Of a DNA stretch of 64,000 nucleotides, positions 549-51,454 are shown one piece after another. The notes under the pieces were generated by a model. It worked only from the letters and a program-made list of their open reading frames with translations. It made no database searches and had not been told where the DNA came from. Made by a program: the position numbers and the translations under genes. Location: positions 8,317-72,316 of the forward strand of contig JACOYX010000017.1 of the NCBI GenBank assembly GCA_016181585.1, read 5' to 3'. The first letter of the stretch is position 1, and every line of letters begins with the position of its first letter. Source of the stretch: Candidatus Sungiibacteriota bacterium. Lineage in GTDB: Bacteria; Patescibacteriota; Minisyncoccia; Sungbacterales; HO2-52-23.

Positions 549-1490
549 TTAGAATCCTACATACTGTATCTCTTCTTCGAGGGAAATGCCAAATTTTCTT
601 CGCACCGTGTCTTTTACCAAAGAAATCAGCATTACCACTTCTTCCGCCGTAGCCTCTCCTTCATTTACAAAATAATTGGCATGCTTCGGTGAAACATACA
701 CGCGCCCAACACGCTTACCCTTCAGCTCTGCGCGATCAATCAAAAGCGAAGCGGGAATATTTTCAGAATCACGAAAATCCGCAAGCCATGGAAACCGCTC
801 GATCAATTCAGTTTTTTGTATGCCCTTCTGCGCCCATGTAATATTTTTAAAAATACATCCGCATGATTTCGTGCCGATATCCTGCTTTGCCGCGCGCGCT
901 TCGGTGATTTCCCGAATCCTCTGTTGAATTTGCTTTTGATCTCCTTTTTTTAAAGAAAGAACTGCGGAAAGAATTATCCACTCCGGATGTTTTTTAAAAA
1001 CCGAATGCCGATATGAAAATTCGCAACGTGCCGCTTCCAACATGCGGCGTTCAGCGCTCAAAGAATCAAATATCTCCACATTCTCCACAACATCTTTCAT
1101 TGCGCCGCCAAAACACCCCGCATTGCCGCGAATGGAACCGCCTATGCTTCCCGGAACGCCGATCCCCCACTCAAAACCGGAAAGTCCGGCTTTGGCAGAA
1201 GCCACTACCGCACGCGCGGTCATTACCCCCGCGTCGGTGAAAAGTTTTTCTCCTTCGGTACGCACCTCGCCTCCACCTACATGAATCGCAACCCCAAAAA
1301 AACCTTTGTCTGCAACCAACATATTGGAACCGGCTCCGATAATTACAAACGGCAGGTGTTTTTCTTTTGCGAATACAATCGCCTCGATGATATCTTCACT
1401 TTTTTTGACATCGGCAAAGAAGCGGGCATGTCCTCCGATTTTATAAACAGTATACAAAGCAAGCGAAATATTTTCTTTGATCTTGATCAT
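549..1490 (-). CDS. murB: UDP-N-acetylenolpyruvoylglucosamine reductase MurB
   Basis: FAD-binding MurB motifs (IGGHARFF..., VIIGAGSNML, C-terminal MurB domain). Start moved to internal ATG (MIKIKENISL...); the 46 upstream codons in the ORF track read as non-homologous extension. Confidence 0.85.
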   Translation of the reverse strand: MIKIKENISLALYTVYKIGGHARFFADVKKSEDIIEAIVFAKEKHLPFVIIGAGSNMLVADKGFFGVAIHVGGGEVRTEGEKLFTDAGVMTARAVVASAKAGLSGFEWGIGVPGSIGGSIRGNAGCFGGAMKDVVENVEIFDSLSAERRMLEAARCEFSYRHSVFKKHPEWIILSAVLSLKKGDQKQIQQRIREITEARAAKQDIGTKSCGCIFKNITWAQKGIQKTELIERFPWLADFRDSENIPASLLIDRAELKGKRVGRVYVSPKHANYFVNEGEATAEEVVMLISLVKDTVRRKFGISLEEEIQYVGF

Positions 1491-1696
1491 ATAAGTTTCT
1501 TTGAAAAAGCCATTAAGACCTCTTTTAGTTATAGTATTGCAACCGGTATCAAGTTGCAATATAGTTGAAAGGAAAAGTATCCGCCCGATCGGACAATCAT
1601 TCGTTTCTGCGACATGAGGAGCTGGCATTCACATAAGGACAAATTGTTGGAATCTACCCTCCTCGTGTCCCAGAAGCAAGTGATATTATAACGAAC

Positions 1697-5005: not shown

Positions 5006-5184
5006 TGGCTCACTTCAAAAACGTGCACCGGATGTGAAAAGACCATTGAGGAGTGCCCATGCGAATCGGATAATAAAATGCTTATCCTCATGGTATGCGC
5101 AAAAAAAGGACTGCATCTTAAAAAACCTCTGAAAATTATAGATTATCTTCCGCCGGAATTGGAGACGATTATATCTCCAAACTA

Positions 5185-5212
5185 AAAAGACGTACGAAAG
5201 TACGTTTTTTAT
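5185..5212 (+). terminator. Rho-independent terminator (agacgtac-gaaa-gtacgt + T6)
   Basis: Palindromic stem followed by tttttt; closes the small-gene cassette. Confidence 0.6.
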
Positions 5213-5241
5213 AATATTCTTAAATCACAAGCGTTTGCGTA

Positions 5242-5399
5242 GGGAAACCCGCGGATTTTTCGCGGGGTTACGAAGTTGTGCAAGCATGGTTCCCGATATT
5301 CATTATTTTCTCTATAAATAAAAATCGGGATTGCACAACTTCGACCTTTTGTTTGCTCACTGGAGCAAACAAAAAAAGCGAAAAATCTGTGGGTTTCCC
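5242..5399. repeat. Structured repeat family F, copy 1: nested inverted repeats around core catggttcccgatattcatt...aaatcgggattg
   Basis: Outer IR gggaaaccc.c.gatttttcg; second IR gaagttgtgcaa/ttgcacaacttc; inner stem tcccgat/atcggga; side hairpin tttgctcactggagcaaa. Homologous copies at 45823-45957 and 7526-7589 with compensatory changes. Confidence 0.7.
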
Positions 5400-5416
5400 T
5401 ACAGGAACATACTAAA

Positions 5417-6331
5417 TCAAACTATCCTCATCATCTTTTTCAACTCCCCAATCCCGTCTTCAAATTTCACATTTGGCGCCCACCCGATAAGATTTTTTGC
5501 GCGAGAGTTGTCCGCAAGCGTAGCTTTCACCTCTCCTCGTCTCACTTCGGCAAATTTCCATTCACCGCCTATTAATTGCGCCACATCAAGAACACTGTAA
5601 TTTTTCCCCGTACCTACATTAATAATTTCTCCTTTTCCGACACGCGGCGATCCCATCGCGAGAATATTGGCACGCGCGATATCGGTAACGTGCGTAAAGT
5701 CCCGGCGCTGGGTGCCATCGGGAACCACAGTCATAATATCTCCCTTTTTTCGCTGTTCCAAAAATATGCCAATCACAGTCGCATATGGCCCATCAGATGC
5801 TGTAGTCTGCCGTGGTCCGTATACATTAAAATAGCGCAAACACACCGTTTCAAGTCCATAAAATTGTGATGCCATCTCGCAATATTGTTCTCCCACTCGC
5901 TTCTGGATCGCATAGGGAATAACCGGTTCCGGCCTCATATCTTCCTTGAGTGGCATAGGATTATTGGGTCCATACGCCGACGAAGAAGCGGAATAGACAA
6001 CCCGCTTCACCCCGGTGTCACGCGCGGCAAGAAGCACATTTAGCGTGCCGGTGATATTGATATCATTCGTCAACTGCGGCTCCAGTATGGAGTATTGCAT
6101 CCGCGGCTGTGCGGCAGTATGGAAAATCCCCGCGGCCCCCTGAAAAATCGGCTTTAATTTTTCAAAATCGCGTATATCCGCTTCGTGCAATACCGCTTTG
6201 GAATTCACCCGTTCGCGCTTTCCTGTTAAGAAAATATCAACAATATGCGCCTCATCGCCGCGCTCCAAAAGTTGATCCACAATATGCGATCCGATAAATC
6301 CCGCGCCTCCGGTTACAATATATTTCGCCAT
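5417..6331 (-). CDS. NAD-dependent epimerase/dehydratase (SDR; UDP-sugar 4-epimerase-like, WbpP/GalE-type)
   Basis: TGGAGFIGSH Rossmann motif; YxxxK region (SSSAYGP); 304 aa. Confidence 0.8.
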   Translation of the reverse strand: MAKYIVTGGAGFIGSHIVDQLLERGDEAHIVDIFLTGKRERVNSKAVLHEADIRDFEKLKPIFQGAAGIFHTAAQPRMQYSILEPQLTNDINITGTLNVLLAARDTGVKRVVYSASSSAYGPNNPMPLKEDMRPEPVIPYAIQKRVGEQYCEMASQFYGLETVCLRYFNVYGPRQTTASDGPYATVIGIFLEQRKKGDIMTVVPDGTQRRDFTHVTDIARANILAMGSPRVGKGEIINVGTGKNYSVLDVAQLIGGEWKFAEVRRGEVKATLADNSRAKNLIGWAPNVKFEDGIGELKKMMRIV

Positions 6332-6342
6332 TTTAATAATTA

Positions 6343-6488
6343 GACCTACTGCGTAAAGATTTTCGTAACGAAATTTCTTAATTTAGAGACAAAATCGTTG
6401 AATAAATTTCGAGGCCTATCGGCTTAGATAAGTCAAGTTTGGCCGAAATTAAGAAATTGCAGTAGAAGTATCTTTACGCAGTAGGTCT
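6343..6488. repeat. Palindromic repeat family A, copy 1 (terminal IR agacctactgcgtaaag...ctttacgcagtaggtct)
   Basis: 17-bp terminal inverted repeats enclosing about 110 bp of imperfectly palindromic sequence; near-identical to the copy at 51264-51426. Confidence 0.75.
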
Positions 6489-6489
6489 A

Positions 6490-7413: not shown

Positions 7414-7525
7414 ACGTTAAATCTTACAGACAAACATAGAACGCCCTGTCTTCGATCGAGGTTACCAACAGTAACAACAGAGTTTTGCATCGAAGCGAGG
7501 CGTTATACTTTCGAGACAATTTGGA

Positions 7526-7589
7526 AAAGCGGCAGCTTGGTTCCCGCTATTCTTATAATTCTTTATAAATAATAGCGGGACGCCGCTTT
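7526..7589. repeat. Structured repeat family F, copy 3 (core only)
   Basis: aaagcggc-agcttggttcccgctatt...aatagcgggacgccgcttt; inner stem tcccgctatt/aatagcggga covaries with tcccgat/atcggga of copies 1 and 2. Confidence 0.5.
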
Positions 7590-7653
7590 GATAGTTAGCG
7601 AGGCCGCCGCGGGAAGCGGCCGAGCGTGTCGAGAAAGCATAATGCTGAGCGAA

Positions 7654-9909
7654 CTATTTACCCCGAATCGATTCCAAAAACGATTCTGCTTCCGCCTTAA
7701 AATTCGGATCCACCCTCATAGATTCTCTCGCCTCCGCCCGCGCCTCCTCATACCTTCCCACAAATGCAAGATGCGCCGCATACACAGCGTGATATTTCGG
7801 ATTCGTCGGCGAAACTTTTACTAAAGCGGCATATATCGGCACGGCGGATTTATATTCCTCAATTTTTTGATACGCTTGCGCAATACGATAGAGTTCCGGT
7901 TCCTTGAGTAAAACAAAATCAGTGGCTGATGCGATCTCTGCGGCAATTTCAGGCTTTTTTCCTATAATGGCGATCACCCACGCATTCACCCTAGCGTCGG
8001 GATATGAATGATCCGCCCGCCACGCGTCTCGCAATGTCTCGGCCGCTCGATCGTTTTTGCCTATATTCATATACATTTGCGCAAGTTCAAAAGCAAGCAT
8101 TTGTTTCTTGGGGCTCATCGCGACTGCCTCTTCAAGAACGCGTACTCCCTCCTCCGCAAATTCTGATTTTAAATCCAGCGCCCGATCTATTATGGCTCCG
8201 TAAAACAAAAGGTGCTTTACATCTTTCGCGGAATGTGATGTTTCTTTGCGAAACTCATCCACAGCAAATTCAATAAAATGCTGTTGTTCCTCTTTAGTAA
8301 ATCTTTCATTGCCTGGAATACTGCGCGCCACATTGCCGATCTGCTCCCTTACTTCCGTATTGCCAAACGAGTCATAACTCAATGCTTTTTGATATGCGCC
8401 GATAATCTGATCTGCCGAACCTCGCTGCTGGATAGTAAGCGCCGTAATGAGCGCTTTGGCTTCATTGATCGGTTTTACATGCAAAAAGTAACCGGCAAAA
8501 ATCACAAGAATAATTGTCGCACTCAATACCGCAAGACCTTGGGGAGCGCGCGCTGAAGCTTTATGGAAAGCAATTTTTTCATGGCTATTTCCCCAAACCG
8601 CAAAATTGGCATACGCCAGAAAAGCGAAAAAGAGAATATAGGTGTTAAGATTGTCGAAGACGAAAATGTCTTGAATAATATGCGAGATAAAAACTCCCAA
8701 AACCACGAGACCCGCCCAAAAAGGAAGTTCTTTCTTTTTCAACGCATGAAAAACGCCCCAAACCGCGGCACCCACCATGGCAAAAAATGCGGCAAATCCC
8801 AAAATCCCAGCATGAATCAGCCAATCAAAGATAATATTGTGCGAGCGGTCAAACCACGGCTCCTGACTCCAGAGTCCGGGGTTATAGTATTTCTGAAACA
8901 CTAAATAATAATTTTCCTGTCCCCAGCCTAAAAAGGGGCGTTCCAAAACACCCTGCCACGACATTCCCCAAATCATCCGCCGTGCGCGAATGGTGTCTTC
9001 CTGGAAAGAATAGTTGGTCAAACGGCGCAGTACTTGATTGGACTGCACAAACGAAGTTCCGCGCATGAGCCAGAGTATCAAGGGTACTGCAATCACCACC
9101 GCAAGCAAACTAGCGGCGATCGCGCGGCCGCGCGCTGTCGGCTTAAATCCGTCGCCCACGCTGAACCCGTGCTGATTTTTTTCTGAAAGTTTTTCCCACC
9201 ATACCACCAGCGCCGAAAGAAAAAGAAAACCCGTAAGCACCATCGCGAGAATAGCCCCGCGGGTTGCGGTGAAATAGAGTATTGTAAATTCAAATAGAAA
9301 AATTAGGGCATAGATTGCCTCGAGCCACCATTTTTTCCAAAAGTTGTACGCAAGCAAAAGCAAAATCCAGAGATGAAACACAAGATACGCCGCAAGGTAG
9401 GTCGGATTGCCGATAGTTGAATCCACGCGAAATCCTCCCTGCATGGAAATCCGGTAACCGAGTTTTTGTAAAAACGCAATGTAGGAAACCAGAACGCTCG
9501 CAATAAGCGTCGTGTGAAAAAAAATAATCCAATCGCGGCGGCGAAACACCGAAACCAGCATGACAAAATAAAGGTACAAATGAACTAGCATCATGAACCC
9601 TTCCATGCGCTCATAGTTGGAGAAAAGCGAACGGTAAGGATTCGGACTCAAAATATCCGCCGCAAACAATATGACTATAAATATGGTTGCCGTTTTAAAT
9701 ACCGGCGTAAGCTTCGGACGGAATTCCTCGCGCATAACCGCAAGGCCCGCCCATGCCGCAAATAAGATTTCCACCATCATGCGAAACGCAAAATTTTTTC
9801 CCGTAATAAAAGGAAAAAGCATTGCAGGTTCTATATAGAGTGGCAAAAAAGGAATCGCCCACAAGCCGATTTTTACGAGCCAAAGCAAGATACTTTCAAG
9901 GTTTTTCAT
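7654..9909 (-). CDS. O-antigen ligase/polymerase (Wzy_C)-like polytopic membrane domain fused to C-terminal TPR repeats
   Basis: 751 aa; about 12 TM helices with a Wzy_C-like loop; C-terminal 280 aa of TPR-like helical repeats. Confidence 0.65.
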   Translation of the reverse strand: MKNLESILLWLVKIGLWAIPFLPLYIEPAMLFPFITGKNFAFRMMVEILFAAWAGLAVMREEFRPKLTPVFKTATIFIVILFAADILSPNPYRSLFSNYERMEGFMMLVHLYLYFVMLVSVFRRRDWIIFFHTTLIASVLVSYIAFLQKLGYRISMQGGFRVDSTIGNPTYLAAYLVFHLWILLLLAYNFWKKWWLEAIYALIFLFEFTILYFTATRGAILAMVLTGFLFLSALVVWWEKLSEKNQHGFSVGDGFKPTARGRAIAASLLAVVIAVPLILWLMRGTSFVQSNQVLRRLTNYSFQEDTIRARRMIWGMSWQGVLERPFLGWGQENYYLVFQKYYNPGLWSQEPWFDRSHNIIFDWLIHAGILGFAAFFAMVGAAVWGVFHALKKKELPFWAGLVVLGVFISHIIQDIFVFDNLNTYILFFAFLAYANFAVWGNSHEKIAFHKASARAPQGLAVLSATIILVIFAGYFLHVKPINEAKALITALTIQQRGSADQIIGAYQKALSYDSFGNTEVREQIGNVARSIPGNERFTKEEQQHFIEFAVDEFRKETSHSAKDVKHLLFYGAIIDRALDLKSEFAEEGVRVLEEAVAMSPKKQMLAFELAQMYMNIGKNDRAAETLRDAWRADHSYPDARVNAWVIAIIGKKPEIAAEIASATDFVLLKEPELYRIAQAYQKIEEYKSAVPIYAALVKVSPTNPKYHAVYAAHLAFVGRYEEARAEARESMRVDPNFKAEAESFLESIRGK

Positions 9910-11144: not shown

Positions 11145-12260
11145 ATGAAAAAACTCCTTATCGTCGCCGACTCCCCTGGTTCCGCAGAATTCATTGCGCC
11201 CGTCATTCCCTTGCTTCAGAAAAAAACAAAGATCGTGGTCGTGACAGTCAACACTTCTACCGAAGCGCCGTATACGATATTAAAAAAATATAAGCCATTA
11301 CGATGCGATCATGAAAAAGATGCGGAGGCATTGTTTCGAAAAATAAAACCCGATATTCTGCTCGCGGGGACAAGCTCGCTCATCCCCGGCCCATTTGTCA
11401 ATAACTGCTTCATCCGCCTCATGCACCGAGAGCAAAAACCGGTTTTAGTCTTTCAAGACTATTGGGCAAACCACCGCTGGCCGCAAAACAAAGAAACTCT
11501 GCATTTGTGGAACGCCGTATTTGTGCCTGACGAACTTGCAAAAAAGTTTTTGCAGGAAGATGCTTTTTCGGGAAATATCATAACCACCGGCAATCCTGCG
11601 TTTGATAAATTCACAACTGCCAATCCCGCCGCGATTCGCAATGCATTGCGCAAGGAGCTCAACATACGCGGATATGAGTTTGTCATACTCTACGCCGGCA
11701 CCGGCACGCCGCAAGCATGGCAGGAAGATGAAGCAACATTTCGTTTTCTCGCTAATGCATTGCAGGAATTTTTTGCGAACACGCCGAATATCGTTTTTAT
11801 TCCCCGCTCTCACCCGCGCGATGAAGAAAAAAATCGGTATCAAAAACTGGCACCTCGTTTGCGGATGTATAACCCAGATCACGGAAAAAACATCTATTCT
11901 ACCGACAATCTACTCTTAATGGCAGATTGTATAATCAGCATGTATTCAACCGCGCTTCTGCACGCCTGTTTTCTCAAAATACCGGCCATAAGCATTCTTC
12001 TTCCCGATGCGGGCCGCGCGCGCCTTCGAAAAATCAATCTCGATAATTTTCCTCCCAATACCGTTGGCGCGACTATTGGTGTTTACAAAGAATCTACCAA
12101 GGACCTTGTCGCCGCATTCGACGCCGTTAAAAATGACCCGCACTATCGCCAAAAGATAACCAACGCGCAAACGCAATTTTTCTCTTTGGCACAGAACAAA
12201 AAATCAGCCACGGAAACTGCGGCCGATGCGATCACTTCTTTTATTAGACCTGCTGCGTAA
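11145..12260 (+). CDS. Hypothetical GT-B-fold-like protein, paralogue of 9983-10975
   Basis: 371 aa; similar architecture (..LLMADCIISMYSTALLHACFLKIPAI..); stop codon lies within the family-A repeat. Confidence 0.4.
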   Translation: MKKLLIVADSPGSAEFIAPVIPLLQKKTKIVVVTVNTSTEAPYTILKKYKPLRCDHEKDAEALFRKIKPDILLAGTSSLIPGPFVNNCFIRLMHREQKPVLVFQDYWANHRWPQNKETLHLWNAVFVPDELAKKFLQEDAFSGNIITTGNPAFDKFTTANPAAIRNALRKELNIRGYEFVILYAGTGTPQAWQEDEATFRFLANALQEFFANTPNIVFIPRSHPRDEEKNRYQKLAPRLRMYNPDHGKNIYSTDNLLLMADCIISMYSTALLHACFLKIPAISILLPDAGRARLRKINLDNFPPNTVGATIGVYKESTKDLVAAFDAVKNDPHYRQKITNAQTQFFSLAQNKKSATETAADAITSFIRPAA

Positions 12261-12360
12261 AAATTTTTCTACTGCAATTTCAATTCGCACCAAAATCGCT
12301 TCAGCAATTTTATCTCAAAATTCTGAAATTTCGCTATGAAAATCTTTACGCAGTAGGTCT
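12246..12360. repeat. Palindromic repeat family A, copy 2
   Basis: agacctgctgcgtaaaaa ... ctttacgcagtaggtct; supplies stop codons for both flanking genes. Confidence 0.7.
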
Positions 12361-12745
12361 ATTTCTTAATTCCTGTTTTTTTCTCAAGTTCAGCAATTCG
12401 TGATTCAAGTTTAGTATATTCGTCGTAGGTAATAAGACGCTTTTTACCCCGAGGATCGGTCCACTCGTTAATTTTTCTATGGATAAAGCGAAGTTCTTCA
12501 GAGTGATCTTCAAGAATTTCTTCTATAGTACCAATTCTTTGCTCTACCGCACCCATGCGAACTTTAAGATCCTCAATATCAGACTCCAGTTTCGAGAAAT
12601 GCTTGTCCACTCGATCAAACCGCGCATCTATTGCCTCAAACCGCGCATCAACCGCGTCAAAGCCAGCTTTTACCATCACAGCCAATTCATCGATTGTAAC
12701 GCCCTTCTTTTTGGCCATAGTGCCATTATAATCAATCCATCCCAT
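12359..12745 (-). CDS. Hypothetical coiled-coil protein
   Basis: About 128 aa; repeated ARFxAIDARFDRVD heptad-like segments; the ORF-track start is TTG, so I used the first ATG. Confidence 0.45.
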   Translation of the reverse strand: MGWIDYNGTMAKKKGVTIDELAVMVKAGFDAVDARFEAIDARFDRVDKHFSKLESDIEDLKVRMGAVEQRIGTIEEILEDHSEELRFIHRKINEWTDPRGKKRLITYDEYTKLESRIAELEKKTGIKK

Positions 12746-12750: not shown

Positions 12751-13860
12751 TCAAATCAGCAAACCTTCAACGATAGGGTCGTACTTTTTAAATGGCTTTG
12801 AGAGTTTTTTTCCTATCACATATTCATATCGCTCCGAAGGCATCCCTCCAGCAAATTTCTGAGGGCGCATGGCATAGATCATATCCGCCGTCAAAATAAC
12901 GCCGGCCGCAATATCTTGTCCTGCCATAAGCGATTTTCGAAAATAAGGACGAAATATCGCCTCTCCATCTTGAAGAACCTTCCCTTCTTTTCCCATGCCT
13001 TTCTGGACAATTTCTTTAGCGAGATATTCTTCTTTTTTTGCGGGATTATTTTCAATATCGCGAATACCTTTGGTAAGAGTCTTGAATTCCTCCGGCGTCA
13101 TGGATACTTTGTGGTCTGCGCCCCATAAATCCCGTGCAAACGAAAAGTGCTTTTCAATCACTCGCGCTCCCAGCGCCACTGCGGCAAGCGCGGAATCAAT
13201 ACCGATCGAATGATCAGAAAATCCGGTTGGCACATGATAACGATCGGCTAAATACTTAATTGATTTTAAATAAAGCTCATCCGGCGGACAGGGGTATTTT
13301 GATACGCAATGCAATAATATTATTTCCGAGTTTCTTCGTTTCAGAAAGTCAATTGCGCTATCAATCTCTTCTTCCGTCGACATACCGGAGGAAATAATAA
13401 TAGGTTTTTTGGTGGAAGCCAGATAATCAAGCATTACAAAATCCAAGAGATCACCGGAACCAACTTTCCATAATTCAACACCAAGTTGCGAAAGTTTTTG
13501 CGCCGCGCCGCGTGACATTGGTGTAGAAAAAAACGTAATGCCAATTTCATCGCAGTACGTTTTTAATGGCCGCCAAAATTCTTCAGGTGGCGTCGCCGCA
13601 GTATTTCGAGAAACCCAAGAATAGCGGTCGGAACCCCTGAAGTGAGGCGAGACAACGTTGATATTCAACTGCTCGTCCTCCACATTGTGCGTCTGAAATT
13701 TCACCGCATCCGCTCCAGCATCTTTTGCAGCTCTAACTAATTTTTTCGCATTTTCCAGATATTCAAAAACCGGACACTCTTCTTCGGTTTGTATAAAATT
13801 CTTGCCCATTTCGGCAATGATGAAAACTTTATTGTTTAGTTGTTGAGGAAAAGAAAGCAT
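12751..13860 (-). CDS. NeuB-family nonulosonic acid synthase (N-acetylneuraminate/legionaminate/pseudaminate synthase-like) with C-terminal SAF domain
   Basis: 369 aa; NeuB TIM-barrel motifs (FIIAEMGKNF, ..KFQTH.., GFSDHS.G); C-terminal SAF-like region. Confidence 0.8.
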   Translation of the reverse strand: MLSFPQQLNNKVFIIAEMGKNFIQTEEECPVFEYLENAKKLVRAAKDAGADAVKFQTHNVEDEQLNINVVSPHFRGSDRYSWVSRNTAATPPEEFWRPLKTYCDEIGITFFSTPMSRGAAQKLSQLGVELWKVGSGDLLDFVMLDYLASTKKPIIISSGMSTEEEIDSAIDFLKRRNSEIILLHCVSKYPCPPDELYLKSIKYLADRYHVPTGFSDHSIGIDSALAAVALGARVIEKHFSFARDLWGADHKVSMTPEEFKTLTKGIRDIENNPAKKEEYLAKEIVQKGMGKEGKVLQDGEAIFRPYFRKSLMAGQDIAAGVILTADMIYAMRPQKFAGGMPSERYEYVIGKKLSKPFKKYDPIVEGLLI

Positions 13861-18357: not shown

Positions 18358-18439
18358 CTAGCATTACCTCCCTTATAATTTTGCTCTTAAGAGCTAATAA
18401 AACTAGTACATTATATAAAGATTACTGTCAAGACACAAA

Positions 18440-18480
18440 TAAAAAACCTTACGAGACATGGTCTCGTAAGGTTTTTTATT
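18440..18480. terminator. Bidirectional terminator: 13-bp-stem hairpin aaccttacgagac-atg-gtctcgtaaggtt flanked by A/T runs
   Basis: aaaaaa...tttttt flanks a perfect stem. Confidence 0.65.
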
Positions 18481-19658: not shown

Positions 19659-19714
19659 ATATCTCTCGCCTTAACACTAAAAATTGGTCTAATACTGAAA
19701 TTCACAAAGGCTGT

Positions 19715-19907
19715 CTCGGCTGCTATGATTTCAGACAATTGGATCGTCGGATTGGATTGGTTCCGCGTACTCGCGGGACAATCCGACGATCCATTAGAGA
19801 GGCCGCCGCCGGGTCAAAAGCACTGCTTTTGACGGGCAGTACTCTACCCCTGGATTTTGCTGTCGGAAGCAAAATCGGCGAAAGGGTCTGAAATCATAGC
19901 AGCCGAG
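19715..19907. repeat. Structured intergenic element with 22-bp perfect terminal inverted repeats (ctcggctgctatgatttcagac / gtctgaaatcatagcagccgag) and three internal hairpins, copy 1
   Basis: Interior holds a 14-bp-stem hairpin (ggatcgtcggattg...caatccgacgatcc) with apical ttccgcgtactcgcgg, plus hairpins gtcaaaagc/gcttttgac and gattttgct/gcaaaatc. Confidence 0.75.
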
Positions 19908-19927
19908 GCAACCGCCCCCTCGACAAC

Positions 19928-21283
19928 TTACAAATTTTCCAAAATAAAATTACCAATTCTCTCCCCAGATTTTCCATCCACAAACTTACACTGGCTTTCA
20001 ACAAGTTTTCTGCGTCCCGCAGAATCGAGCATGGGATCCGCCAAATACTTCTTCACCCACCCTATCAAATCTTCCTCGCTTCCGGCAAGACGGATACCCC
20101 CGTGATCAAGGGCTTTTTTATAATGCGCCATGGCATAAAATTGTGTGGGTGACTTGCACAAAGCCTCATGCGGCCGAATTTCAAAATTAAGATTTATCAC
20201 CGGCTTGTTAAACACCGAGCCGTCTATACTGATGCTCGAAGCGTAACACACGAGAATCGACATATGGTACAACGTATCGGCAAGGTATTTTAGTTCCGCA
20301 AAATCCATATCCCAATCCACTCCCCTTTTCTCGGAAAATCGCGTTCCTGGGTAAGTATAGAGAAGCTTTGGGCGATTGTTTAAATCTTTCGGATCAATAA
20401 AATCATTGGGAGGGAACCGCACTAAGATTTTTATATTATTCCCAAATTTTCCTTCTTCCGCAAGTCGGTTCAATAAATCCATCATATCCCAATCGGAATT
20501 ACTAAACGCACTGCCAATCGGAGAATAGACAATCAATTTCGTGTCGGCAGGCAAATTCAGTCCCCGAAAATATTCTTCGCGCGTGTTTGGCCTCAAAGAA
20601 AAATATTGGTCATATTGCGGTATGCCGCCGGTAAAAATAATATCAGGATTGATGTTGTTATAGAGCATCAAATCTTCTTTGATAAGATCATTAAAAACCA
20701 CAAGATGGTCCGGCACGATGCGTAAAATACACCTTCCTGAAACCCGATCCCATGTATTGATAAATCCTATTGTCTTCACCTTGTTTTTTTTCGCCTCCCG
20801 CAAAAAATGCACCTCCCGTTCATCAAAAAGATTTGCAAGAAATACAAGATCCGGCCGGTATTTCGCAAAATATTTCGCGTACACGCGATCACGCACAAGG
20901 CGATAATCCAAAAAACGCACTGCGGCGAGAACTACAGGACGCGCCAAAAGCCAATTGATAACATTGCTCCATTGATAGGAAACGTAATTTCCTCGCATAT
21001 CATAATCCATACGACGCCGCAATTTTGTGGTCTCCGTCCGCAAAAGCGTGTATTTAAATTTGCGGAATAACCCGTCGAAACCCATTACTGCAGGGTTTTC
21101 CACCACTTCATAAAAAACCCGCGGATCATTGAATTCTTTTTTAAGATACTCAAGCCGTTTTTTATTTTTCGTAAACAAAACAAGGCGAATATCTTTTCGC
21201 TTCATCAATATTTCAAAAACAGGAGTCCGCAAAATATTTTTCGACTCCACCCCCTCAAAAATTGTTATAAAAATTGTTTTCAT
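19928..21283 (-). CDS. TagF-like (CDP-alcohol glycerophosphotransferase-type GT-B) putative transferase, paralogue 1 of 3
   Basis: 451 aa; shares WDxxxxxG and C-terminal ...F.DG..G.R... segments with 45992-47377 and 51455-52837. Confidence 0.45.
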   Translation of the reverse strand: MKTIFITIFEGVESKNILRTPVFEILMKRKDIRLVLFTKNKKRLEYLKKEFNDPRVFYEVVENPAVMGFDGLFRKFKYTLLRTETTKLRRRMDYDMRGNYVSYQWSNVINWLLARPVVLAAVRFLDYRLVRDRVYAKYFAKYRPDLVFLANLFDEREVHFLREAKKNKVKTIGFINTWDRVSGRCILRIVPDHLVVFNDLIKEDLMLYNNINPDIIFTGGIPQYDQYFSLRPNTREEYFRGLNLPADTKLIVYSPIGSAFSNSDWDMMDLLNRLAEEGKFGNNIKILVRFPPNDFIDPKDLNNRPKLLYTYPGTRFSEKRGVDWDMDFAELKYLADTLYHMSILVCYASSISIDGSVFNKPVINLNFEIRPHEALCKSPTQFYAMAHYKKALDHGGIRLAGSEEDLIGWVKKYLADPMLDSAGRRKLVESQCKFVDGKSGERIGNFILENL

Positions 21284-21343
21284 TTTCTTCCTTCATCACA
21301 GACCCCCACATGTGAGAAAATGCCATCGAAAAAGAATGCGGCC

Positions 21344-21476
21344 TCGGCACACTCTGTTTGCGACAATTGGACCCGCAAGTTTGCATGGTTTCCGCGCACT
21401 CGCGGAAAAACTTGCGGGTCCCTTAACAAATTCCGCGCTGGCGGAATTTGTCGGGTCGCAAACAGAGTGTGCCGAG
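21344..21476. repeat. Structured intergenic element with 22-bp perfect terminal inverted repeats (ctcggcacactctgtttgcgac / gtcgcaaacagagtgtgccgag), copy 2
   Basis: Same architecture as 19715-19907: aattgga start, 14-bp stem gacccgcaagttt/aaacttgcgggtc around ttccgcgcactcgcgg, then hairpin aattccgc-gctg-gcggaatt. The stems differ by compensatory changes. Confidence 0.75.
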
Positions 21477-22192: not shown

Positions 22193-22215
22193 ATAATAAT
22201 AGAGTTTGGCGAATA

Positions 22216-22354
22216 TTGTCATTGCGAGCCTGCCCGCCTGCTGTCTTAGGACAGCCAAACCAGGTCGCAGACATCGGCTAGGGTGCTGACGAAGCAATCT
22301 CATACTTACGATATGAGATTGCTTCGTCCAGGTAGAACAGGGACTCGCAATGAC
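22216..22354. repeat. Nested inverted-repeat element (outer tgtcattgcgag/ctcgcaatgaca; inner 15-bp-stem hairpin cgaagcaatctcata-cttacga-tatgagattgcttcg)
   Basis: Outer 12-bp IR encloses gctgtc-ttag-gacagc and a 15-bp perfect hairpin; sits immediately 5' of methyltransferase gene 21503-22192. Confidence 0.6.
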
Positions 22355-22448
22355 ACTGTAGGCCATTATTCACCAAACCCTGTTTTACCTACTTGACTAT
22401 TACTTAGCTTAGTTATACTTTATTCTTAAGATCTTTCTTGGAGAAGAT

Positions 22449-24687: not shown

Positions 24688-25142
24688 CCCACACATAACT
24701 TACACAAGACTATATTGAAGACACTCTTTAAGTCTCCGTAAACCCTGCGCATTTAATTGGTCTGTTGCCGAATAGCACTTTGACTACAATTGCATAAATT
24801 CGGTCAAATTTTTCAAAAAATTTCTTGGCTTATCTTCCAGATAGGCCGCAAAATTTTTTGAAAAATTTGCCTCGAATTTCTGCAACTTCGCGACGTAGGC
24901 TATTCGGCAACAGACCCTTAATTTTAAAGATTGTTCTCTCTTATAAGCATCATCTTTTTACACATAAGCTTCATAGTACACAAGTCGCCATGGCAAATAC
25001 TTTTTTGTGTACGACGACTTGCCACTGTTATGCTGATATAGTCTTCTACGAAGATCACCTGTACCCTACGTACAAACCATCAACAGTTTCAGATTTGAGC
25101 AAATACACATAATACATGTTTGTGTAAGTTATGTGTGGGATG
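24685..25142. mobile_element. MITE-like element: 458 bp bounded by 22-bp perfect terminal inverted repeats (catcccacacataacttacaca / tgtgtaagttatgtgtgggatg); non-coding interior built from mosaic repeat modules
   Basis: TIRs at 24685-24706 and 25121-25142. Interior carries module D (ggtctgttgccgaatagc ... gctattcggcaacagacc) and module C (cttggcttatcttccagataggccgcaaaa), both shared with 40596-40775, 42021-42477 and 57660-57893. The TIRs supply the start codon of 24013-24687 and the last 5 codons plus stop of 25129-25857. Confidence 0.6.
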
Positions 25143-25886: not shown

Positions 25887-26876
25887 TCAAACCCTATGTC
25901 TATTTTTTAGAACCGTCTTTTCCTCCCAATTATACACCCATTCATTCCCCACCAAACTCGCAAAACGACCCCTATAATAATCACGATTCAGCATTTCCGT
26001 ATGTGTCATATCCCGCTCCGCATGCCCCAACATGATCCGCCACTCCGGAATTTCTTTGTCAACAAACAGTCTCTGCTCATCTTTAGCAATCTTGGCAAAC
26101 CGCGAAAGCTCTTTCAGTTGCGAAGGATTAATCGAAACCGGCCCGTCTTTTGTTTTATCGGCTGGCAAAACAGTAAAATGCCGCTCAATATAATCCGCGC
26201 CAAGCATAAGCGCGGTTTGCGCGGCTTTTATTCCATCCCGAGCGACCAGCGTATGGTCGGACCATCCCACTTCCGGAGTAAACTTTCGAAGCCACTCCAT
26301 ACGCGTCAAATTTGCCATTGAGAGCGTATTGGGATAGCTTGTCACGCAATGAAGCAATGTAAACCGTTTATTTTTTTCTTTCAAAATCCTTGCCGTTTCT
26401 TCCACCTCTTCATTAAATGTAGCGCCAGTTGAAACAACCAATGTGTCAAAATTATCCGCTAGTTCGCGGATCATGGGAAAACTGCCGCAATCGTAACTCG
26501 CAACTTTTACCAATCTTTCACCGCCATAGGGAAGCGATGCGGACAGCGGAATTCTTTTGCGGGAAAACACCGTAAGCATGGGCACAGCACCCGCCCTTTT
26601 TACTTCTTCTACAAAAAAATGATAGTCCGCTTCGGCAAGATCAAGAGCCCTCAACCGTGAGGCTTCCGCACCATACGGCCGATGAATCGCTTTGCGGACG
26701 CCGTTATGTTCAACATGCCCCGCATCAAAACGCTCGCGGCGCGTGGTATCTTCTGAAAAAATAATCTGCCCTTTAATAATATCCGCACCGCTTTCTGCCG
26801 CCGCATGAATCAAATCCTTTAAAAGCGCACGATCGCCATTATGATTTTGACATACCTCTACAATAATTTTAGGCAT
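25887..26876 (-). CDS. NeuB-family nonulosonic acid synthase, second paralogue (no clear SAF domain)
   Basis: 329 aa; NeuB TIM-barrel motifs (VEVCQNHNGD, GWSDHT); diverged from 12751-13860 and 42478-43557. Confidence 0.65.
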   Translation of the reverse strand: MPKIIVEVCQNHNGDRALLKDLIHAAAESGADIIKGQIIFSEDTTRRERFDAGHVEHNGVRKAIHRPYGAEASRLRALDLAEADYHFFVEEVKRAGAVPMLTVFSRKRIPLSASLPYGGERLVKVASYDCGSFPMIRELADNFDTLVVSTGATFNEEVEETARILKEKNKRFTLLHCVTSYPNTLSMANLTRMEWLRKFTPEVGWSDHTLVARDGIKAAQTALMLGADYIERHFTVLPADKTKDGPVSINPSQLKELSRFAKIAKDEQRLFVDKEIPEWRIMLGHAERDMTHTEMLNRDYYRGRFASLVGNEWVYNWEEKTVLKNRHRV

Positions 26877-28648: not shown

Positions 28649-28764
28649 CTCAATTTCTAATATCTAATTCCTAATTTCTAATGAAATTTGAATGTTTAAA
28701 ATGTCCCAAATTAAAAATCGCATTTAGCTATTTCATTGGAAATAGGATATTAGAAATTAGGAAT

Positions 28765-30513
28765 TTATAGTTTATTGTAGATAACTCCTTCTGCTTTTTT
28801 TACCTCTTCTTCATTATAAATCCCCCACGTATCAAACATCAAAACAGGCTTTTTAGAAACAGCAAGAAGCGGGCGTATATTCAGCTCTTCAAAGTGAGGG
28901 TTATTGTTCATGACTAAAACAACATCCGCGCCGCGAATGCCCTTTTTGATATCCCCTACATGCGAAACGCCAAACCGCGTAATGTCGCTTTTAACCACCG
29001 CCGGATCAAATCCGTGAATATTGCGATATCCTTTTTTCTGGAGATGCTCAACAATTTTTATCGTTGAAGAACCGCGCACATCGGAAGTGACCGGCTTCCC
29101 TTTAAATGCAAATCCCAAAATAACTATTTTTGTTTTTTGAGCCTGCTTTTTTTCTTTTTTCAAAAACGATTCTATTTCAGACAAAACATGATTCACCATA
29201 AGCTCGCTCACCGCACGCGCATTTTGGAAAAGCAGGGGAATGTATCCCTTTTTGCCGGCGCTATCGATAAAAATATAAGGGTCTTTTTCAAGGCAGTAGC
29301 CGCCTACGCCGGGACTTGGCTTCGGCACGCGCGCGCGTTCATAGCCATAATTTGCCGCATCAATCACGCGATGCGTGTCCACTCCCCATTTTTTTGCAAT
29401 CAAAGAAACCTCGTTGGCAAAGGCAAATGTCACATCACGGTAGGTGTTGTTTACGAGCTTCACCATCTCCGCCTCTTCAAGGGATTCGACGGTAATAATC
29501 GAGTGCGTCATCACATTAAAGATATTTGCCGCGGCATCCGCGCTGGCGCGGTTGACCCCGCCAATCACTTGCGGCAAATGGCGCAATTCTTCAAGTGCTT
29601 TTCCTTCGATCGTTCGCTCCGGAGCAAAAGACACGAAAAATCCTTCGCCTGCCTTAAGCCCGGATTCTTTTTCCAAAATCGGTATCACGACCGTCCGCGT
29701 ACTGCCCATCGGAACCGTGGAGCGTAAAATAACCGAATCACCACGCTTTAATATTCCGCCGACAGTGCGCGCCGCGCTTTCCAAATACGAAAGATTGGGT
29801 TTGTTGTCGGGTCCCAGCGGCGTACCCACGGTAATAAAATAAATATCACAAATATTTTTGCCGAGAAAATCAGAAACGGCAGAAAAGTTAATTCCGTAAT
29901 TATCACAAAGCAGAGTTTCAAGCCCCGCTTCGTAAAAATGAGTTTTTCCTTTTTTAAGCAGTTTGCCGATTTCCGGATTCGCATCGAGTCCCTTCACTTT
30001 AAAGCCAAGGTTCGCGAGGGTTAGGCCAAGCGTTAAACCGACATAGCCAAGCCCTACAATACCGATATGCTTGAAACGCGTATCACTGCGATGCCAAATA
30101 TCGTAGAGCGACATCAGTTCTAACAGTTTTTTGCTCTTATCGACAACGATAATCTTATTGAGTTTATCCGCATGCCATGACTCCTGCTTTATTTTATCCA
30201 TCGCGTGAGAAAGCATTTCTCTGTCTGAAATCGGCCCTTCAATCAAAAAAGGATTTTTGTTCATTACGCCGGAAACCGAATCGTCGAGCATCATGTCCCG
30301 GCTCAAACCGCGCCGAAGATCGCCGTTGGTCACAATACCCAGCACTTTTCTTTGCCGATCCGTTACCACCACAATTCCTGCAGGCAAATTGGTTTTTGCC
30401 GGATCGTTTTCCCCCATCTTTCGCAATACCTCGCGAATCGTATCATTCGGACTCACACAGATTGTAGAAATAAATTTATTTTGCATATGTTTCTTGCTAT
30501 TTTTGGGCAACAT
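28765..30513 (-). CDS. CBS-domain pair fused to a nucleotide-sugar dehydrogenase (UDP-glucose/GDP-mannose dehydrogenase family, WecC/Ugd-like)
   Basis: 582 aa; N-terminal about 130-aa CBS pair; then HIGIVGLGYVGL NAD motif, catalytic GGYCLEKD, and a complete C-terminal UDP-binding domain. Confidence 0.75.
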   Translation of the reverse strand: MLPKNSKKHMQNKFISTICVSPNDTIREVLRKMGENDPAKTNLPAGIVVVTDRQRKVLGIVTNGDLRRGLSRDMMLDDSVSGVMNKNPFLIEGPISDREMLSHAMDKIKQESWHADKLNKIIVVDKSKKLLELMSLYDIWHRSDTRFKHIGIVGLGYVGLTLGLTLANLGFKVKGLDANPEIGKLLKKGKTHFYEAGLETLLCDNYGINFSAVSDFLGKNICDIYFITVGTPLGPDNKPNLSYLESAARTVGGILKRGDSVILRSTVPMGSTRTVVIPILEKESGLKAGEGFFVSFAPERTIEGKALEELRHLPQVIGGVNRASADAAANIFNVMTHSIITVESLEEAEMVKLVNNTYRDVTFAFANEVSLIAKKWGVDTHRVIDAANYGYERARVPKPSPGVGGYCLEKDPYIFIDSAGKKGYIPLLFQNARAVSELMVNHVLSEIESFLKKEKKQAQKTKIVILGFAFKGKPVTSDVRGSSTIKIVEHLQKKGYRNIHGFDPAVVKSDITRFGVSHVGDIKKGIRGADVVLVMNNNPHFEELNIRPLLAVSKKPVLMFDTWGIYNEEEVKKAEGVIYNKL

Positions 30514-40595: not shown

Positions 40596-40775
40596 TTCTA
40601 GCAATATAAAAATGAAAAATGACGGTTAAAATTTAAAATTTCGCATTTTACATTGTCATTTTTCATTTTTATATTAGACCCACTGATTAAAGATAAATCT
40701 ACTGCAATTTCATAATTTCGGCCAAAATCGTCTCAAAATTTATTGGCTTACCTTACAGGTAGGCCGCAAATTTTT
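40596..40775. repeat. Mosaic intergenic repeat: 21-bp perfect IR (aatataaaaatgaaaaatgac / gtcatttttcatttttatatt) + family-A-like arm (agacccactgattaaagat) + module C
   Basis: Module B (gtcatttttcattttt) recurs at 54370-54390 and 55545-55565; module C (ttggcttaccttacaggtaggccgcaaatttttgaa) recurs at 24860-24890, 42225-42255 and 57795-57835 (reverse). Confidence 0.65.
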
Positions 40776-42020: not shown

Positions 42021-42477
42021 GTTGATAATTTAAAAGATATCTTTACGTATAGGTCTATTTAATGGGTTTGTTGCCGAATATCGCTTATGAGCTACGATTG
42101 CATAAATTCGGGTAAATCGCATCGCGATTTACGGGAAATTTAGCGAAGCCGGGTATTCCCGTGCGAAGCGTAAAATTTCCCCGGCTTTTGCTCAAGGAAG
42201 CAAAAGAATTTTTCAAAAAAATTCTTGGCTTATCTCAGCATATAGGCCTTAAACGGTCGATCAGTCCCAGACCGTTCGTACCGAACGGCATGGACCAAGT
42301 CAGGTTTTAGACCGCGTAGTTTGTGTGAGTATTTGCCTCGTCCAGACATGTCGGGATCGCTTCAAAGGCTATTCGGCAACAGTCCCTTAAAGCAGATTGA
42401 GCCTTTTTATACTAAAAAGAATTCAAAATAAAGGCAAATAGAAAAACCCTTCTGAAAGGGTTTTTCTCCAGAAACAG
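42021..42477. repeat. 457-bp non-coding spacer built from repeat modules A-like, D, C and E
   Basis: tctttacgtataggtct; gttgccgaata...ctattcggcaacag; cttggcttatctcagcatataggcc; ggccttaaacggtcgatcagtcccagaccgttcgtaccgaacgg...caggttttagacc (reverse complement of 57700-57790). Confidence 0.6.
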
Positions 42478-43557
42478 TTAACCCCACATAACGTCATCGT
42501 GCTTAATCACCGTATCGAGCGGAATATCTACTTTAGTTTTTTTGCCGATTACTTTTTCAATCATGTTAGGCTTCAAACCGTATCCAGGGCTTTTGCAGGT
42601 AAGCATGGATGCGCTGATTACTGTGCCCGCCGGAATTGCGGCGGCGGAAACTATACTTTTTGAATGCTTCTCCCGCGTCTTCTTTTCTTCTTCAGTAAAT
42701 TTCTTTACCGGCTCGCCAAATGCTTTTTCAATTCTGCGTGTATCCCTCACCATTGAGTTGAATGTCTCCGGTTCGATGCTTACCGTCGCATGATCCGGCC
42801 CAGGAAGAGAACGATCAAGCGTGAAGTGGCGCTCCACCGAAACCGCACCCAGTGTCACCGCCGCAAGCGTCGGCAAGGTATCCTGCTCATGACCGGAATA
42901 GCCGATCGGGAGCGGAGCATAGCGTTCCTTCAAAAGCGGGATTGTTTTTAAATTTATTTTTTCATCCGGAGAAGGATACACCGAAACACAATGCTTGATA
43001 ATCAACTGATCATTGTGTTTTAAAATAGCGTCTACCGCTTCATCAAGCTCTTCGATCGTGCACATACCCGTGGAAAGGAACATCGGTTTTCCTTTTTTTG
43101 CCACATATTCAAGCAGAGGAATATTGGTTACGTCAAAAGACGCAACTTTGTATACCGGAACATTTATTTCCTCCAAAAAATCAGTGCTTTTTTTATCAAA
43201 GGGAGTTGCAAAAAATATGACTCCGAGAGAATCTGACAACGCTTTGAGTTTGGCAAATTCCTCCTGATTGAGCTCAAGCGCTTGGCGGTATTCGCCGTAT
43301 GTTTTCCCGAAAATCTGGTCTTTATTTTGCGGCTTATCCACGAGCTCCTTGGCAAAGGTTTCGTTAATGAACCGCTTCTGCAATTTCACCGCATCCGCAC
43401 CGGCTTTCACCGCTTCCTCGATAGAACGCTTTGCAAGGTAATAATCGCCGTTATGGTTATTGCCGATTTCCGCGATAAAAAACACGGACTCTCCTTCTCC
43501 CACATATTTATTGCCAACCTTGACACGATTCGGGAGATTCTTTTTTGCTAAAGTCAT
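42478..43557 (-). CDS. NeuB-family nonulosonic acid synthase with C-terminal SAF domain, third paralogue
   Basis: FFIAEIGNNHNGD, KLQK and GYSGHE motifs; 359 aa. Confidence 0.8.
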   Translation of the reverse strand: MTLAKKNLPNRVKVGNKYVGEGESVFFIAEIGNNHNGDYYLAKRSIEEAVKAGADAVKLQKRFINETFAKELVDKPQNKDQIFGKTYGEYRQALELNQEEFAKLKALSDSLGVIFFATPFDKKSTDFLEEINVPVYKVASFDVTNIPLLEYVAKKGKPMFLSTGMCTIEELDEAVDAILKHNDQLIIKHCVSVYPSPDEKINLKTIPLLKERYAPLPIGYSGHEQDTLPTLAAVTLGAVSVERHFTLDRSLPGPDHATVSIEPETFNSMVRDTRRIEKAFGEPVKKFTEEEKKTREKHSKSIVSAAAIPAGTVISASMLTCKSPGYGLKPNMIEKVIGKKTKVDIPLDTVIKHDDVMWG

Positions 43558-45795: not shown

Positions 45796-45822
45796 GGCAA
45801 TAGCACGAGAAAGGTCACTATT

Positions 45823-45957
45823 GATTTTTCGCGGGGTTTTGAAGTTTCGCAAGCATGGTTCCCGATATTCATTATTTTATTTTTATAAATGAAAATCGGG
45901 ATTGCGAAACTTCACCCTTCAATTTGCTCGCTGGAGCAAATTGAAAAAGCGAAAATT
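45823..45957. repeat. Structured repeat family F, copy 2
   Basis: gaagtttcgcaa-gcatggttcccgatattcatt...aaatcgggat-tgcgaaacttc; side hairpin atttgctcgctggagcaaat; compensatory changes relative to copy 1. Confidence 0.7.
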
Positions 45958-45991
45958 AATAGTGACATTTCTCCAATTTTAATAATAAAAG

Positions 45992-49894: not shown

Positions 49895-50116
49895 GATAAC
49901 AGTGTTACAAAGGCGACATTGAAAAAACTATGAGACCATTACTAAACTCTTTTTTCTCAGCGAGATCGCAGTTCGCGCGGGAAACTTGAATAATGAGGAA
50001 AGACTATTAGGATAATAATCTGATGAAGGCGGATGTTTTGGGGCCGACGCTTTGCCGTGCTGTCGAGTGCGAAATTATGCCGGTCATAAGCAGAAAAAGG
50101 AGTTTTGTAATGGTCT

Positions 50117-51097: not shown

Positions 51098-51263
51098 AAC
51101 TTTTTATTTTTAATTATGAGGCATGACCTCATAAATGAGAAAACTCCATAATAAACATATAACAAGCGAAAAGAGCTTTACGTTTCGACCATGCTGTCTT
51201 TAAGAAACTGTCTGAAAAGTACTCTTTCGGTAAAAACAAACCGTCTTTTCGATAAAAATCATT

Positions 51264-51426: not shown

Positions 51427-51454
51427 ATTGATTTTAACTTCGAAAGGTACTTTT

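Follow-up and report, generated by a model that had tools for sequence, protein, structure and literature searches.

The REP, BIME and REPIN elements of proteobacteria are short non-coding imperfect palindromes that lie between genes, often just after them, in multiple copies. They form single-stranded DNA hairpins with asymmetric bulges, leave no target-site duplication, and rely on a protein encoded elsewhere (RAYT, TnpA-REP). The 64,000-nucleotide stretch analyzed here, hereafter the window (positions 8,317 to 72,316 of contig JACOYX010000017.1, assembly GCA_016181585.1), belongs to a metagenome-assembled genome (MAG) of Candidatus Sungbacteria, within the candidate phyla radiation (CPR, or Patescibacteria), and it carries a repeat, termed family F, that resembles these elements, its reliance on a protein encoded elsewhere being proposed. 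Family F differs in being a three-way junction of 130–205 nt, where REP is a 20–40-nt palindrome or inverted doublet, in having an outer stem specific to each copy, and in its CPR host. Of the family F copies, copy 1 alone has at its base (GTAGGGAAACCC) the GTAG that is conserved at the foot of REP. RAYT, looked for as a Y1_Tnp match, was not seen among the 40 scanned against Pfam of the larger window open reading frames (ORFs), a scan that left out the ~53.8–64 kb stretch and several ORFs at 32–40 kb.

MITEs (miniature inverted-repeat transposable elements), together with the ERIC/IRU, Correia/NEMIS, RUP and BOX repeats, are 100–200 nt long and have terminal inverted sequences that pair into a long stem. 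They are inserted between operon genes, are polymorphic between strains, and are possibly processed by RNase III or RNase E if transcribed. Family F is comparable in these respects and has the marks of a MITE, namely conserved terminal inverted repeats, small size, no conserved ORF and multiple copies. In contrast to this group, it lacks a target-site duplication and does not resemble the described repeats in sequence, and its internal helices covary while its junction letters are conserved above its stems, which is not the pattern of a neutrally decaying MITE. Neither the 40 ORFs nor the Pfam lists of the loci fetched for comparison revealed a parent insertion sequence whose ends match.

Two further systems offer partial parallels. 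The ends of IS200/IS605 elements and the PATEs also form hairpins on one strand, lack a target-site duplication, and have an orientation tied to one replichore strand. Those elements, however, have subterminal hairpins, unpaired ends and insertion 3′ of a fixed tetranucleotide, while the flanks of family F show no such fixed motif and the scanned ORFs showed neither TnpA nor TnpB. The attC sites of integrons share with family F a conserved structure, almost purely Watson-Crick arms, conserved extrahelical bases, a position after stop codons and a uniform orientation; attC is recognized as folded single-stranded DNA, as is presumed for family F. Family F differs from attC in lacking R and L boxes, in being branched, in being conserved near its junction rather than at its stem base, and in having no integrase seen nearby. 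The bases of its closing stem (GTAGGG.., GAGAAAGG.., GCGTTATA.., GGCTGTCTCGG.., CTCGGCAC..) do not fit attC core sites.

CPR genomes are small and densely packed. To our knowledge, no interspersed repeat families have been described in them, and a literature search for CPR repeats and MITEs found nothing relevant. Family F encodes nothing and is a previously undescribed repeat family. The reading we favor, with about half of our confidence behind it, is that of a REP- or MITE-like palindromic DNA repeat, interspersed and constrained in its structure, which a protein reads as a folded single strand. In kind it is like REP/REPIN or MITE, and it is set apart by its three-way junction, the lack of target duplication and the copy-specific outer stem.

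Each family F copy measures ~130–205 nt, and its single strand folds up as a three-way junction of P1, P2-P3 and P4. P1 is a closing stem of ~19–29 bp in every copy. The P2-P3 hairpin carries a conserved asymmetric 7-nt 5′ bulge, G(C/A)WYGGT, beside an inner stem of the TCCCG/CGGGA type, and P4, a short side hairpin with a YGGA-type loop, forms the third arm. The initial annotation of this stretch had described a three-layer nested stem; a further outermost stem makes the element a three-way junction of four helices (P1–P4) rather than three layers. The bulge reads GCATGGT four times, GCTTGGT three times, and otherwise GATTGGT, GCTCGGT or GCTTGAT. Other conserved unpaired letters are AATT(T)GGA in J12, GAYWRTTAGYGA in J23, CGCKGGAA or GCTG in the P4 loop, and GARCGT in J41. 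Inspection of the alignments for a pseudoknot found no conserved complementarity between the bulge and any other unpaired segment.

The accessible part of this genome is ~72 kb, made up of the window and of L015, a Logan contig of the same organism that reaches ~8 kb past the window end. It holds six copies, five of them in the window, all on the same strand. The initial annotation had named copies at 5.2, 7.5 and 45.8 kb, and every string it quoted was found where it had placed it; these three copies are genuine, while its census lacked two more in the window and a sixth just outside. Five of the six copies sit between co-directional genes and antisense to them, and copy 1 sits in a convergent spacer. 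The copies begin 4–27 nt past the stop codon of the upstream gene. The window contains a core, TGGTTCCCGnTATTC, three times, always on the plus strand; the expected number is 0.48, and three occurrences were not reached in any of 100 shuffles.

Copy 1 extends from 5239 to 5402 (+), with P1 at 5239–5263/5378–5402, P2 at 5271–5283/5331–5343, the bulge GCATGGT at 5284–5290, P3 at 5291–5297/5324–5330 closing an AT-rich loop, and P4 at 5347–5358/5363–5374. Its minimum free energy (MFE) is −90.6 kcal/mol and its fold z is −12.5. Copy 2 (45807–45973, +) has P1 at 45807–45829/45951–45973, P2 at 45840–45852/45902–45914, the same bulge at 45853–45859, P3 at 45860–45866/45895–45901 and P4 at 45918–45929/45934–45945, with an MFE of −76.2 kcal/mol and a fold z of −11.6. 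It occupies the whole spacer from the stop of gene 45992–47377(−) to the ATG at 45795 of gene 44896–45795(−), whose 299-aa protein is HYT37_02960 at NCBI, which confirms the start codon next to copy 2. As first reported, copies 1 and 2 are alike (89% identity over 5254–5316 vs 45823–45885, and 81% over 5306–5384 vs 45877–45955) and each has the side hairpin.

Copy 3 had been placed at 7526–7589 on the strength of its inner stem, tcccgctatt/aatagcggga, which it does retain. Its membership stands, but its extent does not, as the full-length element lies at 7500–7645 (+) with its own closing stem and side hairpin. P1 is at 7500–7517/7628–7645 and contains a tandem G·A, J12 reads AATTT, P2 is at 7526–7533/7582–7589, the bulge AGCTTGGT at 7534–7541, P3 at 7542–7551/7571–7580 and J23, GATAGTTAGCGA, at 7590–7601. 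P4 follows at 7602–7607/7616–7621 with the loop CGCGGGAA, and J41 reads GAGCGT; the fold z is −3.9.

Copies 4 and 5 were first found by reading all large inverted repeats of the window. From 5′ to 3′ they share a plan in which P1 ends in ..GAC and is followed by AATT, P2 from GGA.., the bulge GATTGGT or GCATGGT, P3 as TCC(C)GCG-loop-CGCGG(G)A, P2′, a short hairpin with a GCTG-type loop, ..GG, and P1′ from GTC... Copy 4 is a long variant at 19709–19913 (+), with P1 at 19709–19736/19886–19913, J12 AATT, P2 at 19740–19754/19779–19793, the bulge GATTGGT at 19755–19761, P3 at 19762–19778, extra hairpins at ~19803–19850 and P4 at ~19853–19876. Copy 5 is a compact variant at 21343–21476 (+), in which P1 (21343–21364/21455–21476) is 22 bp and perfect, J12 is AATT, P2 is at 21369–21382/21408–21421, the bulge GCATGGT at 21383–21389, P3 at 21390–21396/21401–21407 with the loop CACT, and P4 at 21426–21436/21441–21451 with the loop GCTG; its MFE is −94.6 kcal/mol. 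Copy 6 lies at L015:5320–5436, ~5 kb past the window end, and shares the genomic orientation of the others. This copy is degenerate (fold z −1.3), which fits the decay of a dispensable repeat.

The copies recognize one another in covariance-model searches. Model R1 was built from copy 3 and two metagenomic relatives (alignment A5), and it detects the untrained copies 1, 2 and 5 at E = 1e-11 to 1e-7, with window matches on the plus strand only. Copy 1 scores 56.9 bits (E 1.6e-11), copy 2 42.7 bits, copy 5 40.4 bits (E 1.7e-7) and copy 6 50.7 bits; copy 3, a training member, scores 162 bits. Model R2 was built from nine copies (alignment A7) that did not include copy 4, which it recovers at 41.5 bits and E = 3e-7; it gives copies 1, 2 and 5 109, 102 and 82.8 bits, respectively. 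Nothing else was significant with R2 in the window, L015 and two relatives, L006 and L016. The alignments were fitted to the covariance model, as MAFFT on full elements misaligned the short-loop copies.

In relatives, four copies lie on other metagenomic contigs that are Sungbacteria-like, beside unrelated genes. L007, a Sungbacteria MAG whose MurB is 66% identical to that of the window (549–1628, minus strand), carries a diverged copy-3-type element between a GT4 gene and a peptidase M24 gene (L007b, L007:8089–8214; R1 50.1 bits). L002 carries two copies in opposite orientations within one spacer, upstream of hrcA-grpE (L002b, and L002a at L002:2157–2285, R1 44.3 bits), and L005 carries one copy downstream of ftsQ. 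The R1 alignments of copies 1, 2, 5 and 6, L007b and L002a are all full-length. L002 and L005 are the two real loci of a pattern scan of metagenomes and come from one metagenome, while L003 and L004 were chance matches; the same kind of scan over a genome-contig collection gave a single chance coding match (L001). Family F copies adjoin no particular gene class.

The initial annotation considered that a clear Rfam match, or an absence of further copies together with a lack of transcription, would count against it. Rfam 15 gave no match on the whole window at gathering thresholds (including hammerhead, twister, 6S, Y RNA and JUMPstart), and permissive Rfam scans of 5150–5480 and 7420–7700 gave chance miRNA and snoRNA models at 11–32 bits, compared to gathering thresholds of 43–110. 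Since no known family matched and the covariance-model search of further DNA found additional copies, neither objection applies, and the novelty of the element is not refuted. No relation of family F to tRNA or tmRNA was found, and the window is without tRNA. A phage or plasmid origin was considered and rejected, as the core pattern had no match in viral contigs and blastn of phages and plasmids was empty; of two seed scans of the viral contigs, one gave 18 matches and the other 3, all by chance and without a model match, with an 18-mer in a phage gene start among them. A small ORF was likewise rejected: the minus strand reads MLAQLRNPAKN.. in copy 1 and MLAKLQNPAKNQ* in copy 2, copy 3 has AAG for ATG, and 5331–5600(+) is not conserved.

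The pairing of the element is conserved far beyond its letters. Across nine copies, standard pairs make up 95.7% of pair cells, and two-sided changes affect 31 of 35 pairs, in 98 cells; one-sided departures from the commonest pair occupy five pair cells only. None of 500 column shuffles reached the observed covariation, and sliding the 3′ partner reduces pairing to 34–52%. RNAalifold independently arrives at the four helices P1–P4 and finds 33 of 35 pairs compensatory. The nine-copy alignment was fitted to the model, but the effect is far above such a bias and copy 4 was recovered untrained. The earlier proposal that compensatory change marks a constrained, folded element is therefore borne out, as is its example, the second stem gaagttgtgcaa/ttgcacaacttc of copy 1 versus gaagtttcgcaa/ttgcgaaacttc of copy 2, where two adjacent P2 pairs changed together (GT/AC to TC/GA) and are fully compensated, while the unpaired parts are ~85–90% identical. 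Unpaired junction, bulge and loop columns are more conserved than paired ones in the copy-3 clade (identity 0.89–0.96 vs 0.73–0.84), and also between copy 3 and L007b (0.79 vs 0.54). The fold and a few exposed letters of family F are under constraint, and hence some molecule reads the folded element.

The type of pairing bears on which molecule is folded. Functional RNA normally tolerates G·U far better than A·C on its own strand. The oppositions counted in seven copies comprise 223 Watson-Crick, 5 G·U, 3 A·C and 7 others, and in nine copies G·U and A·C stand at 5 each among ~300 cells, a small sample. As wobble pairs are rare and G·U is no commoner than A·C, neither strand behaves like RNA. 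With DNA parameters both strands fold stably, at −22 to −70 kcal/mol. The almost pure Watson-Crick pairing, with G·T and A·C mismatches equally rare, suggests that it is DNA, folded as a single strand or as a cruciform, on which the constraint acts. Of the two possibilities offered by the initial annotation, an ncRNA (non-coding RNA) or a DNA hairpin recognized by a protein, the second fits better. The ncRNA option gains no support, because G·U and A·C are equally rare, no promoter or terminator is consistently attached, and the strand that the annotation had read is antisense to the flanking genes.

Two properties that the initial annotation overlooked are that copies are missing from conserved operons of related genomes and that the outer closing stem is copy-specific. 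The Wzy to UDPG_dh junction is 19 nt in L007 and 37 nt in the relative L011, compared to 241 nt with copy 3 in the window. The methyltransferase to Glyphos_transf junction is 14 nt in L012 and 40 nt in L013, compared to 219 nt with copy 5. The Glyphos_transf to Epimerase_2 junction is an overlap in L012, 5 nt in L013 and 38 nt in L014, compared to 269 nt with copy 4. Gene order is the same in these relatives without copies 3, 4 and 5, and their loci gave no model match. This absence from conserved operons identifies family F as an interspersed repeat. Because the genes of L012 overlap, no host palindrome pre-existed at the copy 4 and 5 sites, and the element is extra DNA in its entirety, including P1. 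The idea that copies had inserted into existing host palindromes, which would account for the copy-specific outer stem, was discarded, since these sites in L012–L014 overlap or measure 5–40 nt and hold no palindrome.

No clean empty site was found for copies 1 and 2, whose positions hold another gene in L006 and a HicAB pair in L016. In L006, the closest relative (MurB 84% identical), the copy 3 slot holds a simpler element (L006:47–122) with a copy-5-like P1 (CTCGG..TTTGCGAC) and a P4 with a GCTG loop, without the bulged P2-P3; it has five G·U pairs on the GCATGGT-type strand (the F strand), compared to one on the other. In the close relative L016, the orthologue of window gene 44896–45795 carries a HicA/HicB-like pair at its 5′ end (L016:1–760), and the first ~120 nt of that orthologue are duplicated on both sides of the pair (starts 64 and 726). 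This region looks like a toxin-antitoxin cassette insertion.

Only the inner ~10 bp of P1 are common within a subfamily. The inner arms are GATTTTTCGC/GCGAAAAATC in copies 1 and 2, CTTTCGAGAC/GTCGAGAAAG in copy 3, L005 and L002b, and CTCGG...TTTSMGAC in copies 4 and 5 and in L006. The outer half is perfectly paired, yet it shows no relation between copies whose remaining sequence is 85–90% identical. The outer P1 may be constrained for pairing alone, with its arms co-evolving fast; alternatively, various members of a family of simple hairpins with the common tip CGAGAC/GTCTCG may have received a copy of the core. A simple 20-bp hairpin at 18438–18480 (AATAAAAAACCTTACGAGAC-ATG-GTCTCGTAAGGTTTTTTATT, without an assigned strand) has this tip, which resembles the top of a copy-3-type P1, and a similar hairpin lies at L016:3993–4039. 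R1 aligns only P1 of the window hairpin, at 15.7 bits (E 0.16, not significant). The hairpin looks like an intrinsic terminator and may be a P1-only relative or a host hairpin; it is a lead only.

A mechanism consistent with these observations would involve a trans-acting, structure-specific DNA enzyme encoded elsewhere, which would recognize the junction and bulge so that copies are spread or kept. Comparable pairs of enzyme and site are RAYT on REP, TnpA on IS200/IS605 ends and IntI on attC. Hairpin-templated repair (template switching) may keep the arms perfectly complementary, and would explain the adjacent double compensation from GT/AC to TC/GA more easily than four independent substitutions. 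Effects on the host as transcribed intercistronic hairpins would be secondary. Other presence/absence-polymorphic palindromic repeat families are present in the same genome.

Several findings weigh against the reading of family F as a mobile, protein-read DNA repeat. The flanks of all ten copies show no target-site duplication, and where flanks recur they extend the palindrome (copies 1, 2 and 5, L002b and L005). Neither the 40 scanned ORFs nor the Pfam lists precomputed for the fetched loci showed a transposase, recombinase, integrase or reverse transcriptase. Except for the pair of copies 1 and 2, the copies of this genome differ considerably from one another and give no sign of a recent burst. 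Junctions that are better conserved than stems are also a classic signature of functional RNA, and six copies on one strand, antisense to flanking genes, could reflect a constraint at the level of RNA or of polarity. In RNA folding of whole elements, including the outer P1, 7 of 9 fold slightly better on the GCATGGT strand (G·U 23 vs 13), a trend that vanishes within the modeled helices. Finally, a copy-specific but perfectly paired outer P1 is not explained by any known transposition mechanism. It is possible, if doubtful, that the Y-shaped fold is the recognition structure of an undescribed CPR system, either a new kind of structure-specific transposition or recombination on single-stranded DNA, by which each new site would gain its own perfectly paired outer stem, or a new multi-copy class of structured RNA.

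An RNA-level role in cis is unlikely, though it survives better than the explanations that follow. Family F would then be a structured RNA in polycistronic glycan mRNAs or in antisense transcripts, an intercistronic processing or stabilizing element whose 19–29-bp P1 would be an RNase III-type substrate and whose bulge and loops would bind protein. The location of copies just past stop codons, the filling of an entire spacer by copy 2, and the single orientation of 6/6 copies in the genome are all expected of such an element, as are the strong covariation, the conservation of junction, bulge and loop letters above the stems, and the recurrence of YGGA/YGGT motifs in J12, the bulge and the P4 loop. 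However, G·U is not favored over A·C (5 vs 5), and the elements are missing from the same operons of relatives with 76–84% identical proteins, so they are dispensable there. The lack of association with a gene class, the opposite orientations of the two L002 copies within one spacer, and the lack of a consistently attached terminator or promoter also speak against it. An intrinsic terminator in particular was sought around the five window copies and rejected, as no site coincides with the end of P1 on either strand.

It is quite improbable that the copies are stand-alone small RNA genes transcribed from the F strand, for example a protein sponge displaying GGA-like loop motifs. The slightly better folding of whole elements on that strand, the G·U excess of L006:47–122 on it, and the TGGA/TGGT motifs at unpaired positions would suit such genes. 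Within the modeled helices, however, G·U equals A·C, there is no conserved upstream promoter or downstream terminator (the sole promoter-like site, at copy 4, is at chance level), no Rfam family matches, and the copies lie inside operons, antisense to genes.

Still less credence is given to the view that the P1 arms are the inverted repeats of invertible switches (invertons) that phase-vary the polysaccharide locus, as in Bacteroides capsule loci. Long perfect inverted repeats do flank 90–150-bp intergenic segments in this glycan locus, the loops of copies 1–3 are AT-rich and TATAAT-like, and a different hairpin family occupies the same pepM24 to murB slot in opposite orientations in L007 and L011. 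Against this, P2, P3 and P4 covary as strongly as P1, which is not required of an inverton, copies 4 and 5 have 4-nt loops without promoter-like sequence, all six copies have one orientation in the assemblies, copies also sit beside housekeeping genes, and no invertase gene was seen among the scanned ORFs. Least probable of all are attC-like, structure-specific recombination sites bounding exchangeable glycan cassettes in the manner of an integron: the attC-like traits listed above and the position of copy 2 at a synteny break with L016 are offset by the absence of R′′/R′ boxes (RYYYAAC/GTTRRRY) at the stem base, the conservation of the inner rather than the outer stem, the three-way junction and the absence of an integrase among the scanned ORFs, and copies 3, 4 and 5 interrupt operons of identical gene order in relatives and are thus not cassette boundaries.

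Family F is the best defined of several families of large nested palindromic repeats that this one Sungbacteria genome carries, which expand otherwise overlapping junctions in a surface-glycan locus, and its covariation is unusually clean. If its reader were named, be it a transposase or recombinase specific for hairpins or a protein that binds RNA, the lineage, where few mobile-element or regulatory systems are known, would gain one. The covariance model provides a handle for tracking recombination and strain variation in the glycan loci of uncultured bacteria. Should family F be no more than a selfish repeat, catalogues of repeats or of the Rfam type would still gain a clean new family, though no surprise in kind.

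The contig carries a giant glycan-biosynthesis locus, mostly on one strand. The MurB of the window matches an NCBI protein of a Candidatus Sungbacteria MAG at 100% identity. Nearly all of the 40 scanned ORFs are glycan-biosynthesis genes, the majority on the minus strand, and they include glycosyltransferases, epimerases, methyltransferases, Wzy_C, NeuB and CDP-glycerol glycerophosphotransferases. The locus exceeds 64 kb, which is unusually large for a small CPR genome. It contains three NeuB paralogues (12751–13860, 25887–26876 and 42478–43557), three CDP-glycerol glycerophosphotransferase paralogues (11145–12260, 19928–21283 and 45992–47377) and two CMP-sugar cytidylyltransferases.

A second palindromic family occurs at 6341–6489, 12245–12361, 51263–51427, 57650–57902 and 59885–59924, with a half-site at 40666–40696. 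It has conserved 17–20-bp arms, TAGACCTACTGCGTAAAGAT/ATCTTTACGCAGTAGGTCTA, around variable inner modules, and 59885–59924 is a bare hairpin. The segments 6335–6422 and 51257–51344 are 99% identical. L006, L007 and L011 lack this family at the orthologous UDPG_dh/epimerase junction, with 17 nt between the genes or an overlap. Different outer stems enclose a common inner module, ..AATTTTTCAAAAAATTTCTTGGCTTATCT..AGATAGGCCGCAAAATTTT.., at 24783–24857, 40701–40775 and 42092–42235, and also at 6393–6421 and 51315–51343, so that the palindromic modules of this genome seem to combine by nesting. More large composite hairpins, with outer arms of 11–26 bp enclosing 65–217 nt, lie in the intergenic spacers at 1680–1918, 22207–22365, 28652–28765 and 49932–50117; the family F model gives no match to them.

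Palindromes of other kinds are also seen in the relatives. The pepM24 to murB spacer contains a homologous hairpin at L007:9685–9819 (+) and L011:9702–9835 (−), in opposite orientations, and the segment has either been inverted between its arms or inserted independently. The arms of this hairpin (CCCACACATAA..GAC) recur in nested form at L011:8252–8419, like a REP-type repeat. At L012:1825–1860 and L013:2525–2578, the methyltransferase stop codon TAA lies in the loop of a 9–11-bp hairpin (AACTAYGARGC-TAA-GCYTCRTAGTT), right before the next start codon. A similar pair of AACTACA.. hairpins (2054–2101 and 2714–2751) flanks an extra PaaX_M-like gene in L006.

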